Position numbers and translations under genes: made by a program | DNA from: a virus | Strand: one strand, 5' to 3' | Length of the DNA stretch: 34,663 bases | Virus genome (UHGV): UHGV-0173140 | Notes under the pieces: model-generated | What the model saw: only the letters and a program-made list of their open reading frames with translations | Told to the model about the DNA's origin: nothing | Databases searched by the model: none | In this document: positions 11,345-32,034 of the stretch, piece after piece | Numbering within the stretch: position 1 is the stretch's first letter | Layout of the letters: each line of letters begins with the position of its first letter

Positions 11345-12043
11345 TTAGCAGCAGCCAGTCGGTGGAGTTTGCGGAGTAGGCAGCTTGAAGTTAATAAGCT
11401 GATCGACCTGGTTAATTTTGCACGCCAACTGAGACGTTTGTGACAATTGAGACAACTGGAAGTCACGGGTTTGAATCTGAGATTTCAGGTCACAAATCAG
11501 AACAGCCTGAGACTGTGCGAACTGGTCACGGATCAGTGCACGAGTTGCTTCCGCTTGACGTTCAATGTTCAGGTTGGTTTCGCAGCAACACTTCTCAGCC
11601 GCTAACTGTGCCTGGAAAGAACGAGTCAGTGCCGCAGTTTCAGATGCACAGATCGCATTGGTCACAGTGTTAGTACCCTGTTGAATCTGCGTGTTCAGAC
11701 CTGCAAAACCTTGAACGTTTGCCAGCAGGTTTTGTGTGTTCTGTTGGGTCAGACCGTTATAGGTAGAAGCTGCTGAGCGTTCAACAGTCAGGTTAGTACC
11801 ATTCTGACCCTGAATGTTAGCAAGTGACGCCGCATTAATAGCCTGAAGAATAGCGTTAGTATCCAGAGAGTTCTGAACAACAACACCTTCAGCAGCACCA
11901 ATACCACGACCACCCCAACCACCGCCACCACCCCAGCCATTACCGAACCAGGAACCGATAAGACCGCCGATACCACCACCAAGTGCAGCCGCGCCAGCTT
12001 CACCGCCGAAACCGCCAGTGGGAACTAAAGTCATGTCAGACAT
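11345..12043 (-). CDS. Gly-rich / Gln-Asn-Thr-rich protein with C-terminal Cys residues
   Basis: N-terminus GGFGGEAGAAALGGGIGGLIGSWFGNGWGGGGGWGGRG; C-terminus ends TGCC; aggag SD. Confidence 0.5.
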   Translation of the reverse strand: MSDMTLVPTGGFGGEAGAAALGGGIGGLIGSWFGNGWGGGGGWGGRGIGAAEGVVVQNSLDTNAILQAINAASLANIQGQNGTNLTVERSAASTYNGLTQQNTQNLLANVQGFAGLNTQIQQGTNTVTNAICASETAALTRSFQAQLAAEKCCCETNLNIERQAEATRALIRDQFAQSQAVLICDLKSQIQTRDFQLSQLSQTSQLACKINQVDQLINFKLPTPQTPPTGCC

Positions 12044-12050
12044 GTTGAAA

Positions 12051-12101
12051 CTCCTGTGAGAGAATGTTAATTAACTGTAACCGATCGGTTACTTACAGGA
12101 G
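12051..12101 (-). promoter_or_regulatory. 5' leader stem-loop able to sequester the SD of the Gly-rich gene; contains 16-bp perfect palindrome gtaaccgatcggttac (12077-12092)
   Basis: Arms ctcctgt (12051-12057) and acaggag (12095-12101) are complementary; one arm carries the aggag SD. Confidence 0.4.
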
Positions 12102-14074: not shown

Positions 14075-14303
14075 TGTTGTCATAGACAAGATACCTGACC
14101 AAGTATGTAGTAACCCGGAATTGTCCGGCTGAAGATACCGCTGATTGTCAGGCGCTACGGTGAGTATAAAGCGTAACTCACCCCACGAAATCACACACTA
14201 TGCATCATCTGGTTGGATGGTGGTTCCTGCGGGGATTGTGAAATTAGTTGCGACGGGTTGAAGAGATATCTTGTCACTAAACAAAAACAAGAGGGTCGTG
14301 AGT

Positions 14304-14990
14304 ATGAATATTGTTAACAGCTTGATGAAAGACTTACTTATTTCCGGTGGTTGGTCTGAAAGCTGTGTACAGATGTATCAACATGATTATGTAAAACCGA
14401 ATATTATTGAAACATACATTCAAGAAAACAAAAACAAGAGAGTCATGAGTATGAAAATCACTAAACAAGAACTGAAAAATTTTGGTGCATGTCAGGAAGG
14501 TTTTAAACGTTTCATCATTCAGACTAACAACACTGACGAACCTGTTGAAGTTATTAGTCTAATCGGTGGCAAAAATACCGTTTCAGACTTGTTATGGTTA
14601 GCCGGGAAAATCTTACCAAAAGAAAAAATCGTTCGGTTCGCTTGCGATTGTGCTTTGTTGAACATTGAATTAATTCGACCTTATACGAATGACTTTAATC
14701 TGATTCAGGATTTTCTTAATAACCCGTCACAAAATGCTGCTCGTGATGCTGCTGATGCTGCTCGTGCTGCTGCTGCTGATGCTGCTGATGCTGCTCGTGC
14801 TGCTGCTGTTGCTGCTGCGTATGCTGCTCGTGCTGCTGCTGTTGCTGCTGCTGCGTATGCTGCTCGTGCTGCTGATGCTGCGTATGCTGCTGCTGCTGCG
14901 TATGCTGCTCGTGCTGCTGCTGCTGCTCGTGCTGCTGCTGCTGCTCGTGCTGATATTAACAAACTGTTGGTGAAACTTTTCACTGAGTAA
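14304..14990 (+). CDS. hypothetical protein with C-terminal Ala-rich (AARxAAD/Y) low-complexity repeats
   Basis: ATG 14304 (track 14271, TTG); the leader aaaaacaagag(g/a)gtc(g/a)tgagtATG is duplicated in frame at 14430-14453; C-terminal ~70 residues encoded by GCT-rich repeats. Confidence 0.5.
   Translation: MNIVNSLMKDLLISGGWSESCVQMYQHDYVKPNIIETYIQENKNKRVMSMKITKQELKNFGACQEGFKRFIIQTNNTDEPVEVISLIGGKNTVSDLLWLAGKILPKEKIVRFACDCALLNIELIRPYTNDFNLIQDFLNNPSQNAARDAADAARAAAADAADAARAAAVAAAYAARAAAVAAAAYAARAADAAYAAAAAYAARAAAAARAAAAARADINKLLVKLFTE
14735..14952. repeat. imperfect trinucleotide-type repeat (gct gct cgt/gat/tat) about 220 bp
   Basis: Direct reading; produces open shadow frames on both strands (track ORFs 14705-15112 and 14734-14973). 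Confidence 0.8.
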
Positions 14991-23892: not shown

Positions 23893-24059
23893 TTCTTTTT
23901 ACTCCCGGTTAGTTTGGCAATCCAACGATTTTCATTAACGCTGGGAAAACTGTTATTGAACTTACACTGACGTTCTTCTTCTTTTGTCAACGGTTTAAAT
24001 TTAGAACGACAGGTCAACGTACCGTAAATTGATGTTAAGTTGTCTGACATAGTTTTCAT
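23889..24059 (-). CDS. small hypothetical protein (56 aa)
   Basis: ATGA-coupled to the ParB-like stop and to the downstream start. Confidence 0.3.
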   Translation of the reverse strand: MKTMSDNLTSIYGTLTCRSKFKPLTKEEERQCKFNNSFPSVNENRWIAKLTGSKKK

Positions 24060-24823
24060 AACTGGTGCTCCTTCAGTGCTTTTAACGCTTCGAACTGTTC
24101 AGTGGTGAGTTCAACCAGGACTTTACCACCTTCCGAACGGGTTACAGACCATTCACCACGGATTGCTTCCACTGCAGATCGTACTAGTTTAGCAGGTGGA
24201 CGACGCGTTACTACTGGTTCTTTATCACCTGCTTTAAACTGGCGTATGGCTGCTGACGCGCTGATTTCACCATTCTGGATCCGACGTTTAAGTTCCAGCG
24301 GCATATCAAGAATATTCAGTTGTTCGTAAACATGTTGGACGGTTTTACCGACCTGTGTAGCGATCTGCTCAACACTCATGCCATATGAACGGAAACGACC
24401 GTAAATAACAGCACGTTCAACAGGTGACCACGGTTTACCTTCATTACCTTTTAATAGTGTCAGGGTCTGCTGTAGTTCATCACCAGATGATTCAACAACG
24501 TCTACTGTCAGAATCGGCGTCCCGGCCTCAATAGCTGCCAATACGCCACGTAAACGATGCTCACCATCCTGGACATACGGAACACCGTCAACAACCTGTA
24601 CCACGATCGGTGGAACGAAATCGCCGTTGGTATAAGCCTGACGAAAGTTTTCAATGTGTGCCAGTGCTGCTTCAGTTTCCCAGTAGTTGTCGGTAAACAC
24701 ACCCCGTGGGTTATGACCCGGGCGAATCTTGATGATACGCGGATCAATGCGATATGCGTTACCACGTTTTACGTTGGTTTTATCGGTATCAGACAGCTTG
24801 CGAAGGGAGTTAATGTTAGCCAT
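24056..24823 (-). CDS. ParB-like nuclease-domain (ParB/Srx) protein
   Basis: VQDGEHRLRGV motif in an N-terminal ParB-type fold; helical C-terminal half. Confidence 0.65.
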   Translation of the reverse strand: MANINSLRKLSDTDKTNVKRGNAYRIDPRIIKIRPGHNPRGVFTDNYWETEAALAHIENFRQAYTNGDFVPPIVVQVVDGVPYVQDGEHRLRGVLAAIEAGTPILTVDVVESSGDELQQTLTLLKGNEGKPWSPVERAVIYGRFRSYGMSVEQIATQVGKTVQHVYEQLNILDMPLELKRRIQNGEISASAAIRQFKAGDKEPVVTRRPPAKLVRSAVEAIRGEWSVTRSEGGKVLVELTTEQFEALKALKEHQL

Positions 24824-24857
24824 GGTTGTTAGTCCTGTTTGCGTCCGAAATTAGTTT

Positions 24858-25049
24858 TTACCAGAAAGTCGATAGCATACTGCTGACCTTCTGCAGTAAG
24901 GAAAGTGAAATAGGTTTCTTTCTGATATTCAGTTTTTGTATCGCACGTAGCGGCAAAACCGTAAGCGCGAAGTTCAGCAGCACCTGATTTAGACGGTAAA
25001 TCGCCAGAGTAAAGAGCACCACGGAAAAATAATGCATAAATAACCTCAT
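24858..25049 (-). CDS. small hydrophobic ORF downstream of promoter (uncertain)
   Basis: Only ATG-initiated frame in this gap; an overlapping frame looks more protein-like but has no start codon. Confidence 0.25.
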   Translation of the reverse strand: MRLFMHYFSVVLFTLAIYRLNQVLLNFALTVLPLRAIQKLNIRKKPISLSLLQKVSSMLSTFW

Positions 25050-25067
25050 GTGTGTTAACTGAGGCTA

Positions 25068-25110
25068 ATTATCGGGGAGGGTTGGTAATCTGTCAAGAAT
25101 TATTTTAAGG
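25068..25110 (-). promoter_or_regulatory. conserved promoter copy, minus strand (TTGACA; -10 GATAAT)
   Basis: Reverse complement reads ccttaaaataattcttgacagattaccaaccctccccgataat. Confidence 0.55.
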
Positions 25111-25500
25111 ATACGGAACCCACACAGTTAAACCAGCTTTCAACATGCGACGGTGCATATCAGCAGTACCACGACCACCGGGGAACATAACACCGTATAT
25201 AGGGCGTGGTTCACCCTCTAACATCGCCTGATTACGTTGATGACCTGCAACAGCGTTATAAGCCCCGTGCTTACCCTGTTTTACAACCGCACCAGGTACA
25301 GTCAGATCGTCCCACGCTGCCGGGCAACTACGCACAGGAATACCGTGTAATTGCGCCCATTGCTTACACAGGTTATCAACACCTGACGCACCTCCTTCAA
25401 TTAGTTCGGTAACCGGAAATTGTTTGTGAAGTAGTCCTAACGCGGAAAACACTGCTGTTCTGTCGTTAAAGTCACGACCACCTGTGACGACAATTATCAT
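25105..25500 (-). CDS. SLOG-superfamily protein (DUF2493/YspA-like)
   Basis: IIVVTGGRDFNDR, EGGASGVDNLCKQWA, RNQAML and FPGGRGTADM match the DUF2493 pattern from memory. Confidence 0.6.
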   Translation of the reverse strand: MIIVVTGGRDFNDRTAVFSALGLLHKQFPVTELIEGGASGVDNLCKQWAQLHGIPVRSCPAAWDDLTVPGAVVKQGKHGAYNAVAGHQRNQAMLEGEPRPIYGVMFPGGRGTADMHRRMLKAGLTVWVPYP

Positions 25501-26177
25501 TGTTTATTAGCCTCAAATACAGCGCGAGCAAAGCCACGCGGGGTTAATGAACGTAATTGTTTAGTTGTTTCAGACTTACCACCCAGATATTTCCAGCCCC
25601 AGAAGAAACCAATATTAATCGGTCCGGGACGTTTTTCAGGCATTCTGAAACCGTTACCGAACCACAGACATGTTTTCTTCGTGTATCCGTCAAACATCGG
25701 CATTTTAGGGTGAAAAGGTTTATCATCTGTTGTCATATAACCGCCATATTCCCACGGATGAAAATAAGCGTTAGGTGGTCCCATCATTTCAGGACGCGAT
25801 AAAGCACCGACAGGGTTTTCCACCATCCAGGGTACGTTATAACGTTCTCCGAGTTCACGGATCAGTTTTGCGTTTGCCAGTGCATACTGTAGTTCAGCGT
25901 CATCCCGGTCATGTTGCGAACCGCTTTGAGCAAACAGGGTGCAATCCGGAAAACCAAAAATAATTGACGGTAAAGGTGTTCCCAGTATTTCCTGCTTAAT
26001 TGCAAATTGTGGGTCAATCCACTGATTAACGTAATGAAGATTTGGGTGTTGCATTTTGATTTTATATTCCCCGTGATTACCGGAATCAGCATTAAAGCAA
26101 TAAGCCTGATAGCCAGCCTTAGCCCACGGTAAACCCATGATCCCGGAACCATCGAATAATGACCAGACGACTTTCAT
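25497..26177 (-). CDS. short DNA (cytosine-5)-methyltransferase-like protein
   Basis: Motif I-like LFDGSG, motif IV-like GFPDCTLFAQSG, motif VI-like MVENPVG; only 226 aa with no obvious target-recognition domain. Confidence 0.45.
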   Translation of the reverse strand: MKVVWSLFDGSGIMGLPWAKAGYQAYCFNADSGNHGEYKIKMQHPNLHYVNQWIDPQFAIKQEILGTPLPSIIFGFPDCTLFAQSGSQHDRDDAELQYALANAKLIRELGERYNVPWMVENPVGALSRPEMMGPPNAYFHPWEYGGYMTTDDKPFHPKMPMFDGYTKKTCLWFGNGFRMPEKRPGPINIGFFWGWKYLGGKSETTKQLRSLTPRGFARAVFEANKQ

Positions 26178-26389
26178 CCTTCTGTCTCCTCGACGATTCG
26201 TGTGATTTTAACAGGTGCAATTGTTACTTTTTTACAATTGAAACCTTGATCACGGAGTGCTTTAAGTGCAACACCAGCCATGTAAGTTGAACTGAACAGA
26301 GTAGCGTCACTAATATCAACCCAGGTAATCCGGGTATCAATATGTGCATAACGGTCTTCTTTTTTGATTACAGCACCGAATTCAGTCAT
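26174..26389 (-). CDS. hypothetical protein
   Basis: Track ORF; ATGA-coupled. Confidence 0.4.
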   Translation of the reverse strand: MTEFGAVIKKEDRYAHIDTRITWVDISDATLFSSTYMAGVALKALRDQGFNCKKVTIAPVKITRIVEETEG

Positions 26390-26579
26390 GATCGTTTTTC
26401 ACTCCCCACATGCAAGCACCAATTGATGCCGCAGCCGCTAATAATCCAAGATCCGCCAGAAACCACCACGGTGTTTCCGCATGATTACCACGGGTCATTA
26501 GTCCGACAATACAAGACGCGAGTGTTACGGACACAAGAAATACGATAACAGTAATTAAACGGTCAAATATGTTTTTCAT
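26382..26579 (-). CDS. small membrane protein
   Basis: Start at MKNIFD with aaggag SD (track 26382-26624); two hydrophobic helices. Confidence 0.45.
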   Translation of the reverse strand: MKNIFDRLITVIVFLVSVTLASCIVGLMTRGNHAETPWWFLADLGLLAAAASIGACMWGVKNDHD

Positions 26580-26610
26580 AATAATCACTCCTTGTTCACT
26601 TGATGTACAG

Positions 26611-26652
26611 ACTATAGCGTACACATCTGTAATTCGTCAAGAATTATTTTAC
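26611..26652 (-). promoter_or_regulatory. conserved promoter copy, minus strand (TTGACG; -10 TATAGT)
   Basis: Reverse complement reads gtgtaaaataattcttgacgaattacagatg... Confidence 0.5.
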
Positions 26653-26669
26653 ACATCCTTGTGCAATGA

Positions 26670-29024
26670 CTAACCGTTACTCGCAGGTGGGAAAGGCACT
26701 ACATTAGCTGTTGACTGAAAAGGGAGAAGACGAATACCCCTGAAACCGTTTAGTCGTACGTTATTTATATTAACAACGTCTTTTTTCACTTTACCACGAA
26801 GGGTGGATTTAAACGCCCGACTAAATGCAGTTTTAGTCATTGCTGGACCACCTTCCTGTGTTTTCCAGAGACGATAACGACCATAGAGTTCTTCAGTGTG
26901 CACCTCACCATCAGATACCAATTCGCAACAATCTCTGATAAAACTTCTAAGTGGTGATTGTTGATCCATAATTTCCTGACGTTCTTCCAGACTTGCTTTT
27001 GGTTCAGTAAACCGTCCGTTTGCACGTAACCGTTGTAAACCTTCAATCGCCCAGTTACAGATCCCCGGTAGTTCTTTCATCAGTCGTGCTTCCAGAGTAG
27101 TATCTTCACGACCCAGGAACGAAATGTTGAATGGCAGGATCAGCAAACGGTTAGCCATTGCACCGGAATCATCAGCAAATGCCGGGATGTTGTTAGCAGC
27201 CAGTGTCATACGTCCCGGTAAACGACCGTTCCATGCACCTTTATATTTACGATTAACCGGAATCGCATCACAACCTGTAATAGATTTGAAACGGTCCAGA
27301 ATTCGGTTGCGATCAGGCCCGGACACACTGTGAGCATCACCGATAAACAGCACAGATTTATCCAGCACAGTTTCAAGTACCGCATCACTAGCTAAACCCT
27401 CCAGTGTGATCCCCGCATACGCTTCATCACCTACCAGTGCCTGAATGATACGACCAATCGTGCCTTTACCGGAACGTGGTGCACCAATCAACAGCATCGC
27501 TTTCTGATAGTCATACGAGTTGACAAGCATGTAACCCAGCCATTCCTGCAACAGTGCAATACGTTCCTGATCACCTTCCAGAGTTGTATTTAAAAACTGT
27601 TCAAACGCTGGTGCACGAGCAAATGGATCGTAGCTATACGGTAAAATACTGGTCGTAAAGAAATCCGGGTTATGTGCATCACATTTACCCGTGTGTACAT
27701 CCAGTATCCCGTTCTGACAAACAATATAGTGTGATACATCAACACCGGGCCATGTTCCAAGCTCACGATCAGCGCGTGTGAATAAATACGACAATACCTT
27801 GTACGTACCATTAATCACGTCAGCTTTTGGTTCGCTGGCAAGCATTGCCATAGAAATTTGATGTTTCAGTTCATCTTCACTGACACGTTCCCACACACGA
27901 CCGTTGAACCGGTACGGCTGTTGCTGGACGAAAATCAATGTGTTGTTCGGATAATAGTTATTAACGAACGTGGATGCGTTAACCGTGTGGTTTGAACCAT
28001 ATGCACCTTCACCGGGTTTCACACTCATGTACGCAGGTGTTCCACCGTTAGGAACGACGGTAGGCGCTGGTGTGACTGCTTTCATCAGTTCTGGTGTCAG
28101 TGTCGGTTGACTACGATAAACCGTATCACAACGTTCCACAGCGCCCAGAATCGTGTTTTCACGGTAATCCTGACGATCTGTCCATTTACCACGAACCAGC
28201 CCGGAACGGTTAAACAATCGTTCAATACGTTCGCAATCTTTCCCGGTCCAGAACGCAAGGTGTGAGCACAGGGCAGCATCAGCGGCAGATGCATTGTAGT
28301 CTTTTCCCTGGTCGCTGGGATATGACACAGACAGGCGTTCAACGTTTGCATTCCACAGATCCGCAAATGACGCTTTATTACCAAATACTGAAGCAGCACT
28401 GGACGAATTTAACGCCATTTTAATCAGTTCATCATCGTCTGCCGGACCTGACCAGTCATCACAGGGTGCTGTTGTCCAGCGTGCGGAACGGTCTGAACGG
28501 ATACGACCATACCGGGCAATAGAATCATGAATGCCCTGGGTATAATCAATATCAACATCACCATTACCCGTGAGTGTCATCGCGACGAAACGATCACGCC
28601 AGTACATTTCCAGCCCGGTTTTCTGGTCGTTAAGACTGTTAAAACCTTCCGGTATGCTGGTATAAGCACAGATGATATGTAAACCTGTTCCTGACTGACT
28701 TACTTCAGTGTAAGCATTTGGGAAACGGTTTACGAATTCATGCGCCAGAGGTGACCACGTAGCTGTTGCCTGATCTACCAGACAGTTATCAACATCGATA
28801 AAGAAATAAGGGTCATTTTCTGTGAATACAAAACCAACACCGGACATACCGTACATTTGCGCCATACCCAACGCGGTGTGATAGTCAGACCAGTCGTTAG
28901 GGTTAGTGGTACTGGCTTTATAACCGTGTACCGGGCTGTATGGTACTTTCGTTGGTTTTGGACGATCGGCGACTGTCTCAAGTCGCCACATGACCCACTG
29001 TTTACGGTTCAGTAACCCTTTCAT
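26670..29024 (-). CDS. DNA primase-helicase (prim-pol N-terminus, PriCT-like middle, D5/P4-type P-loop NTPase C-terminus)
   Basis: FIDVDN and SQSGTGLHI prim-pol motifs; Walker A GAPRSGKGT; 784 aa. Confidence 0.75.
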   Translation of the reverse strand: MKGLLNRKQWVMWRLETVADRPKPTKVPYSPVHGYKASTTNPNDWSDYHTALGMAQMYGMSGVGFVFTENDPYFFIDVDNCLVDQATATWSPLAHEFVNRFPNAYTEVSQSGTGLHIICAYTSIPEGFNSLNDQKTGLEMYWRDRFVAMTLTGNGDVDIDYTQGIHDSIARYGRIRSDRSARWTTAPCDDWSGPADDDELIKMALNSSSAASVFGNKASFADLWNANVERLSVSYPSDQGKDYNASAADAALCSHLAFWTGKDCERIERLFNRSGLVRGKWTDRQDYRENTILGAVERCDTVYRSQPTLTPELMKAVTPAPTVVPNGGTPAYMSVKPGEGAYGSNHTVNASTFVNNYYPNNTLIFVQQQPYRFNGRVWERVSEDELKHQISMAMLASEPKADVINGTYKVLSYLFTRADRELGTWPGVDVSHYIVCQNGILDVHTGKCDAHNPDFFTTSILPYSYDPFARAPAFEQFLNTTLEGDQERIALLQEWLGYMLVNSYDYQKAMLLIGAPRSGKGTIGRIIQALVGDEAYAGITLEGLASDAVLETVLDKSVLFIGDAHSVSGPDRNRILDRFKSITGCDAIPVNRKYKGAWNGRLPGRMTLAANNIPAFADDSGAMANRLLILPFNISFLGREDTTLEARLMKELPGICNWAIEGLQRLRANGRFTEPKASLEERQEIMDQQSPLRSFIRDCCELVSDGEVHTEELYGRYRLWKTQEGGPAMTKTAFSRAFKSTLRGKVKKDVVNINNVRLNGFRGIRLLPFQSTANVVPFPPASNG

Positions 29025-31992: not shown

Positions 31993-32034
31993 GTAAAATA
32001 ATTCTTGACAGATTACACAACACCTTTTAAAGTT
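31993..32034 (+). promoter_or_regulatory. conserved promoter copy (TTGACA 32005-32010, -10 taaagt)
   Basis: gtgtaaaataattcttgacagattacac; second of two tandem promoters. Confidence 0.5.

Follow-up and report, generated by a model that had tools for sequence, protein, structure and literature searches.

Phage K42, a KarlJaspers/Bas06-like phage of the Drexlerviridae, carries a 711-bp dcm gene whose product methylates CCWGG in multicopy single-stranded DNA (msDNA), with 5-methylcytosine (5mC) detected by liquid chromatography coupled to mass spectrometry (LC-MS), and thereby triggers retron Ec86/Eco1. The enzyme has a catalytic C82 and the substrate-binding residues E128, K175, and K176, among which K175 and K176 were mutated in the same study, and such a Dcm is encoded by 34 of the 35 retron Ec86-sensitive phages of that collection (bioRxiv 10.1101/2023.08.16.553469). 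Viral SLOG domains have been predicted to bind or cleave ADP-ribose-derived immune signals and to occur in SLOG-NADAR-Macro gene neighborhoods (PMC9503650; PMC7824862), while LOG enzymes are N-glycosidases (PMC9503650). Domains of the DUF2493 type are also found fused to a Dda-like helicase in HelB of ICP1 and to DciA in Streptomyces. Orphan proteins that have the ParB-CTPase fold, finally, are numerous on phages and plasmids, vary in their nucleoside triphosphate (NTP) specificity, and are frequently fused to DNA methyltransferases in phages (bioRxiv 10.1101/2025.10.10.680097). Relatives of all three kinds of protein are encoded side by side on the minus strand of UHGV virus genome UHGV-0173140, a stretch of 34,663 nucleotides that we analyzed at its full length and refer to as the window: a compact Dcm-like C5-cytosine DNA methyltransferase (MTase) of 226 amino acids (25497-26177), a stand-alone SLOG protein of 131 amino acids (25105-25500), and an orphan ParB-like protein of 255 amino acids (24056-24823).

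The window derives from a virulent siphophage of the 9NA/Sashavirus type, as seen from a megablast search with positions 23800-26700 that returned 23 phage records. The closest of these were Escherichia phages PDP46 and PJ16, Sashavirus BDX09P1, and Salmonella phage Sasha (ca. 95% nucleotide identity), whereas Salmonella phage 9NA was 84% identical. In the window the three genes sit in the early, replication-proximal arm downstream of a primase-helicase gene. An initial annotation had correctly placed the three open reading frames (ORFs) and named their domains, which we could confirm with matches to hidden Markov models (HMMs), PHROGs, and PDB entries, and had proposed that the three proteins act together as a DNA-modification or anti-defense module. 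Our analysis points elsewhere, and we put a probability of roughly 75% on the view that the trio consists of functionally independent accessory genes that are separately gained and lost in a mosaic stretch of two transcription units, and that their shared order reflects common descent of the backbone of one phage clade instead of a functional module.

This view is carried primarily by the uneven distribution of the three genes among close relatives. All three are present, with HMM confirmation, in the window, PDP46, PJ16, Sasha, Kpn BU9, Carvaje, and KP13-27. By contrast, phage 9NA encodes the MTase and the ParB-like protein but has two small ORFs where the SLOG gene would be, the MTase is missing from the locus in Bas82 and AVIO78A, which have the SLOG and ParB-like genes, and phi_270 has the MTase only. 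The spacers between the genes differ as well and contain an HNH endonuclease cassette in Sasha, BU9, and Carvaje or a NADAR gene in AVIO78A and KP13-27, while one or two small ORFs separate the MTase and SLOG genes in the Klebsiella relatives. Because the genes thus vary independently among the closest relatives, a three-gene module is not supported. In addition, Bas82 has been reported to be markedly sensitive to restriction-modification (RM) systems, and 9NA virion DNA has been analyzed by restriction digestion and is taken to be restrictable, so that there is no sign of global modification or protection of the DNA in these phages.

Outside the 9NA-like clade we did not observe any co-occurrence of this MTase with the SLOG gene in the loci sampled. 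Among 80 MTase loci from IMG/VR with 6-kb flanks, the seven 9NA-like ones carry the ParB-like gene without exception and the SLOG gene in 6/7 cases, but SLOG was found at 0/73 of the others and a distant ParB-family gene, in other positions, at 4/73; these counts come from the 80 best-matching loci, many of them near-duplicates, and are hence not independent, which lessens their weight in favor of our interpretation. The reciprocal sampling of 82 SLOG loci, to which this caveat applies as well, gave the same picture with this MTase at the seven 9NA-like loci only (0/75 of the remainder) and a distant ParB-family gene at 2/75. The statement of the initial annotation that no system with exactly this trio has been described would be true only because, on our reading, the trio does not make up a system. 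Annotations of the individual genes exist in GenBank records of relatives; in that of PDP46 they read "cytosine specific methyltransferase", "SLOG cluster4 family protein", and "ParB-like partition protein". The families of all three proteins are already described and annotated in published genomes.

The predicted promoters of the region divide the trio. A box of sequence AAATAATTCTTGAC, composed of an UP-like element and a -35 hexamer, occurs 13 times in the window compared to 0.5 expected copies (including sites at 286-299, 592-605, 4488-4501, 25092-25105, 26636-26649, and 31996-32009) and is associated with numerous short transcription units, which lie on both strands. Two copies lie at the locus on the minus strand. 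The first belongs to promoter P1 (26611-26649), where the box at 26636-26649 is combined with the -35 element TTGACG and the -10 element TATAGT (10/12 matches to the sigma-70 consensus), and P1 heads four translationally coupled genes for a lipoprotein, a 71-aa protein, the MTase, and the SLOG protein. The second, promoter P2 (25068-25105), combines the box at 25092-25105 with TTGACA and GATAAT (11/12 matches) and is located between the SLOG and ParB-like genes. Alignment with relatives shows the P2 equivalent of PJ16 directly upstream of the ParB start. By these sequence features P2 is the predicted promoter of the ParB-like gene, and the trio is split over two transcription units. The two promoter copies that the initial annotation had noticed are thus real, but the three genes do not all stand behind both of them.

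Direct searches with the 226-aa protein yielded no Pfam match even at E<=10 and no NCBIfam or PDB sequence match, and the profile of its family likewise found no MTase in the PDB by sequence. The protein matches PHROG 757 "DNA methyltransferase" with an E-value of 1.3e-79, has the fold of a C5-MTase catalytic domain, and was weakly matched by MTase_II models of PADLOC, which found nothing for the SLOG and ParB-like proteins; moreover, among 35 close relatives, 8 have a PF00145 match (best E-value 3.1e-6). Given the empty direct searches, the link to C5 MTases rests on PHROGs, structure prediction, the Pfam matches of relatives, and the literature. Motifs I, IV, and VI that had been noted before are indeed present and invariant in the family, i.e., the S-adenosylmethionine (SAM)-binding FxGxG motif I as F8-D9-G10-S11-G12 (with D9, G10, S11, and G12 invariant in 35 relatives), motif IV as F76-P77-D-C79-T80 (P77 and C79 invariant), and the ENV motif VI as E120-N121-P122-V123 (E120-N121 invariant). 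More generally, this large and tightly conserved family comprises proteins of 215-240 amino acids that show little or no variation in FDGSG, FP(D/P/S)C, ENPVG, and the C-terminal segment TPRGFARAV, and alignment places the catalytic residues at Cys79, Glu120, and Lys167/Lys168. A canonical large target-recognition domain (TRD) is missing, as previously proposed, yet the claim that there is none at all was too strong because a very short putative substitute occupies the TRD position at residues ~125-205; this segment includes K167/K168 and is among the most conserved parts of the family. Compared to canonical C5 MTases of PF00145 (M.HhaI, M.HaeIII, DNMT3, and 3g7u of prophage CP-933R), the protein thus shares motifs I (FxGxG), IV (PC), and VI (EN) but is ca. 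100 residues shorter, does not match the Pfam model, and has this short conserved segment instead of a large variable TRD.

The family is extremely common in enterobacterial phages and was found by tblastn in 1489 phage records including Drexlerviridae, Webervirus, Vequintavirinae, Dhillonvirus, Campylobacter, Vibrio, and other phages. We linked the window MTase to K42 Dcm through gene 64 of Warwickvirus tiwna by gene length and residue numbers: this gene is 711 bp long and encodes C82, E128, K175, and K176 at the K42 Dcm positions, and its product is 43% identical to the window MTase over the full length (E-value 1e-61) with C79/E120/K167/K168 aligned to C82/E128/K175/K176. As far as sequence can tell, this places the 226-aa protein in a family of small orphan Dcm enzymes already known from phages. 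It resembles the Dcm of K42/Bas06-type Drexlerviridae in size class (226 versus 236 amino acids), in the positions of the catalytic Cys, Glu, and Lys-Lys residues, and in being an orphan without restriction partner, but the two are only 43% identical and the window MTase belongs to a different phage family and gene context. Most likely, the enzyme would methylate phage DNA during replication, probably at CCWGG, which would shield the phage from CCWGG-type restriction and might also activate retron Ec86/Eco1 as a side effect. There are 52 CCWGG sites in the window (versus 45 expected from composition and 78 by a maximal-order Markov estimate), so a substrate exists if the specificity is conserved. 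As a homologue triggers this retron, presence or absence of the gene may predict sensitivity to it, and PDP46 and PJ16 (MTase present) versus Bas82 and AVIO78A (MTase absent) would provide a natural comparison.

The ParB-like protein, together with its predicted own promoter, appears to be a separate unit. It matches PHROG 1033 "ParB-like" (E-value 1.9e-59) and PF17762 HTH_ParB (28.9 bits, cut-off 22.6), stays below the cut-off of TIGR00180 (37.2 versus 58.45, E-value 2.4e-9), and did not match PF02195 in Pfam searches. In sequence searches of the PDB it aligns, over box II and the helix-turn-helix (HTH) domain, to structures of Spo0J, ParB, Noc, and KorB. The earlier naming as a ParB-like nuclease-domain gene was thus right about ParB, while "nuclease" is a legacy Pfam label; we see no sign of nuclease activity, and the architecture matches the DNA-binding proteins ParB, KorB, and Noc. 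Conserved N-terminal boxes of the family are box I (NPR) and box II (G87-E-H89-R90-L-R92-G), with GEHRLRG differing from the canonical GERRxRA by a change of the first Arg to His and with GNEGK in place of ENxQR in box III. The family is narrow (29 clusters), and the gene is present in every 9NA-like relative that we examined except in the partial locus of phi_270. No ParA is annotated in the flanks of relatives or was found among the larger ORFs of the window that we scanned, and no palindrome of at least 14 nt recurs in the window as a parS site might. The protein resembles orphan ParB-CTPase-fold proteins such as KorB, Noc, VirB, and BisD in having a probable ParB fold with boxes I (NPR) and II followed by an HTH, in lacking a ParA partner, and in being encoded on a mobile element. 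It differs from them in the sequences of box II and box III, which make NTP choice and hydrolysis uncertain, in its score below the TIGR00180 cut-off, and in the very narrow spread of its family. We consider it most likely an NTP-switched DNA-binding regulator or organizer of phage DNA, like KorB, Noc, or VirB; as such it would be neither a nuclease nor a partner of the methylase.

Several repeats of the window were considered in this context. Its longest perfect palindrome is the single 16-bp element GTAACCGATCGGTTAC at 12077-12092, which is flanked by the large-terminase ORF and an ORF whose end lies at 12043. Separately, at least seven direct copies of an iteron-like motif (approximately WAAWGCACAACATGCACTA) are found at 19340-19830 in an AT-rich divergent intergenic region directly upstream of the gene for the small terminase (18631-19383, minus strand), and the Sasha record labels the equivalent region a "direct tandem repeat region". 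This region is a candidate pac site, origin, or array for a DNA-binding protein such as the ParB-like protein. Neither the palindrome nor the iteron array could be tied to the ParB-like protein as its parS, and a literature lead that connected 9NA to ParB was discarded because the ParB of the BstA paper is an unrelated ParB-mCherry tool.

The region between P2 and the start of the ParB-like gene (24824-25067) is a hot spot of cassette exchange. PJ16 has nothing at this junction and PDP46 and Bas82 share a 76-aa ORF, while the window has an unrelated insert of ca. 190 bp (24858-25049, minus strand) with a possible hydrophobic ORF of 59-63 amino acids that matched no family. Both the ParB start and the insert of PDP46 and Bas82 open with ATGGCTAA.

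The 131-aa protein was confirmed as a SLOG protein by HMM and structure prediction. It matches PF10686 (YAcAr/DUF2493) with 69.1 bits (cut-off 28.2, E-value 2.9e-19), and this domain is carried by 120/120 SLOG relatives among the matches listed. The predicted structure has a Rossmannoid fold (pLDDT 95.9) whose nearest counterparts in the PDB are LOG-family proteins (1wek, 5wq3), DprA, ShosA, and ThsA (TMq 0.55-0.69, with weak E-values of at least 1e-3), and no close homologue was found among solved structures. Residues G7, G8, R9, G36, G40, D42, G108, G111, and T112 are invariant, the family conserves the motifs GGR, GxxxGxD, AGxxRN, and PGGxGT, and it was detected in 655 phage records. The protein is thus akin to the YAcAr/DUF2493 family, and more distantly to LOG, DprA, and the SLOG domain of ThsA, in Pfam score, GGR/GxGxD/PGGxGT loops, and Rossmannoid fold; it is set apart by being a stand-alone protein of 131 amino acids with an extra insert of ca. 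17 residues specific to the 9NA-like clade, and the roles of the family are themselves predictions. By this evidence it would be a small Rossmannoid nucleotide-binding protein that acts either as an accessory factor of replication or helicases or as a protein that binds ADP-ribose-derived immune signals or cleaves them as an N-glycosidase.

The genomic context speaks to these two options. We compared the immediate neighbors of SLOG genes in viral contigs outside the 9NA-like clade, taking the longest ORF within 400 bp, a crude choice that could miss small genes. Upstream (72 neighbors), 11 were sigma factors and 3 were RNA polymerase, with various replication genes among the rest; downstream (70 neighbors) they included SF2 helicases (10), ThyX, and HNH proteins, and a DNA polymerase gene adjoins the SLOG gene in several phages. 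A replication-associated role is suggested because the neighbors are helicases, sigma factors, and polymerases and because of the fusions to a helicase and to DciA, and the context backs it no less than an anti-signal role.

Among the alternatives to our interpretation, the one that fares best is that the SLOG protein, alone or with NADAR, is an anti-defense factor that binds or degrades ADP-ribose-derived signals such as the cyclic ADP-ribose (cADPR) isomers of Thoeris-type systems, though we still consider it unlikely. Such a role has been predicted in the literature (PMC9503650), expression would be early from a strong predicted promoter, and the SLOG domain of ThsA is among the fold matches, albeit weakly and no closer than LOG or DprA. 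A NADAR gene (PF08719) lies directly downstream of the SLOG gene in AVIO78A (L005:2343-2765, E-value 1e-22) and KP13-27 (L009:3074-3415, E-value 4e-17), which is consistent with the predicted SLOG-NADAR association (PMC9503650), but the window itself has no NADAR gene beside SLOG and the neighbors sampled elsewhere included neither NADAR nor Macro (0/70 downstream and 0/72 upstream, i.e., 0/142 in total). A general SLOG-NADAR/Macro neighborhood was therefore rejected, and the recurrent links of the family go to replication proteins instead. The anti-defense function proposed in the initial annotation is plausible for single genes, i.e., the Dcm-like orphan methylase and, following PMC9503650, the SLOG protein, but not for the trio as a joint system.

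Several observations weigh against treating the three genes as independent. The activities of all three proteins are predictions, and both the activity and the CCWGG specificity of the MTase are deduced from a homologue of 43% identity, an extrapolation where specificity is concerned. The order MTase-SLOG-ParB persists in relatives from Salmonella, Escherichia, and Klebsiella at protein identities as low as ca. 65-69%, and the common fusions of ParB-CTPase folds to MTases in phages set a precedent for a link between these two proteins. Moreover, a 4-bp overlap (ATGA) joins the stop of the MTase gene to the start of the SLOG gene, indicating translational coupling, and Vibrio phage K389 (L092:108-3339) has a primase gene followed by a non-homologous MT-A70 methylase gene and next a SLOG gene, here too overlapping by 4 bp; its primase and SLOG protein are 40% and 46% identical to those of the window, respectively.

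These last points favor a narrower alternative in which the MTase and SLOG protein form a functional pair with ParB being unrelated, e.g., with SLOG aiding methylation by N-glycosidase removal of an inhibitory nucleoside by-product such as S-adenosylhomocysteine (SAH) or by acting on the DNA substrate. Apart from the overlap and the arrangement in K389, an adjacent MTase was found at 3 of ca. 72 other SLOG loci and each time belonged to a different family (MT-A70, N6_N4, or Dam), and the closest PDB folds of the SLOG model include LOG proteins, which are N-glycosidases (PMC9503650). However, 9NA has the MTase without SLOG, Bas82 and AVIO78A have SLOG without the MTase, the Klebsiella relatives separate the two genes, and no SLOG gene lies within 6 kb of any MTase locus sampled outside the 9NA-like clade. 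The 40% identity of the K389 primase further means that its arrangement can be inherited synteny with one slot refilled. We therefore regard a functional pair as quite improbable and rate the chances of a genuine MTase-SLOG partnership as similarly slim or slightly lower. About as slim are the prospects of the broader idea that the recurrence of a methylase slot coupled to a YAcAr SLOG gene downstream of homologous primases could mean that SLOG works with phage DNA methylation. If this were true, SLOG could clear SAH or another adenosyl by-product as an N-glycosidase, or couple methylation to replication, and a link to methylation would be a new role for the YAcAr family.

That all three proteins act together to hypermodify the DNA of the phage or to capture a nucleotide signal of the host is hardly credible: the conserved order within the clade, domains that all act on DNA or nucleotides, the ParB-MTase fusions of phages (10.1101/2025.10.10.680097), and a C5-MTase relative in the PDB that is a carboxymethyltransferase (8yf3), so that the fold can perform non-methyl transfer, are outweighed by the independent losses in 9NA, Bas82, and AVIO78A, the insertions between the genes, the predicted separate transcription units with P2 between SLOG and ParB, the lack of co-occurrence elsewhere, the RM sensitivity of Bas82 and restrictable DNA of 9NA, and the plain 5mC made by the homologous Dcm (10.1101/2023.08.16.553469). 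The preferred reading of three independent genes holds little new biology for the trio, as the apparent three-gene system would be a synteny artefact of a single phage clade, but the stand-alone YAcAr SLOG protein and the orphan ParB-like protein are each a reasonable target for a single-gene study.

The remaining genes of the two transcription units are small and likewise encoded on the minus strand. Downstream of P1, a small membrane or lipoprotein-like gene (26382-26624) matches phrog_22517 (E-value 4.2e-46) with an alignment to residues 16-80, and its real start is probably an internal ATG that would give a product of ca. 65 amino acids. It is followed by a gene for a 71-aa protein with no assigned function (26174-26389, phrog_26050) that overlaps the MTase start by 4 bp. 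At the other end of the locus, a 56-aa DUF2737 gene (23889-24059) overlaps the end of the ParB-like gene by 4 bp and shares its transcription unit.

Two further features of the window lie apart from the trio. The same early arm encodes a 189-aa HD_4-domain protein (21520-22089, minus strand) that resembles RelA/SpoT-type HD hydrolases (E-value 5.9e-15) and is labeled as a (p)ppGpp synthetase, metal-dependent phosphohydrolase, or polyphosphate hydrolase in relatives; it may degrade alarmones or other nucleotide signals. In addition, a long and imperfect TGCTGC / 33-bp tandem array at 14735-14954 lies within an ORF at 14271-14990 (phrog_21347) that encodes a low-complexity repeat protein.

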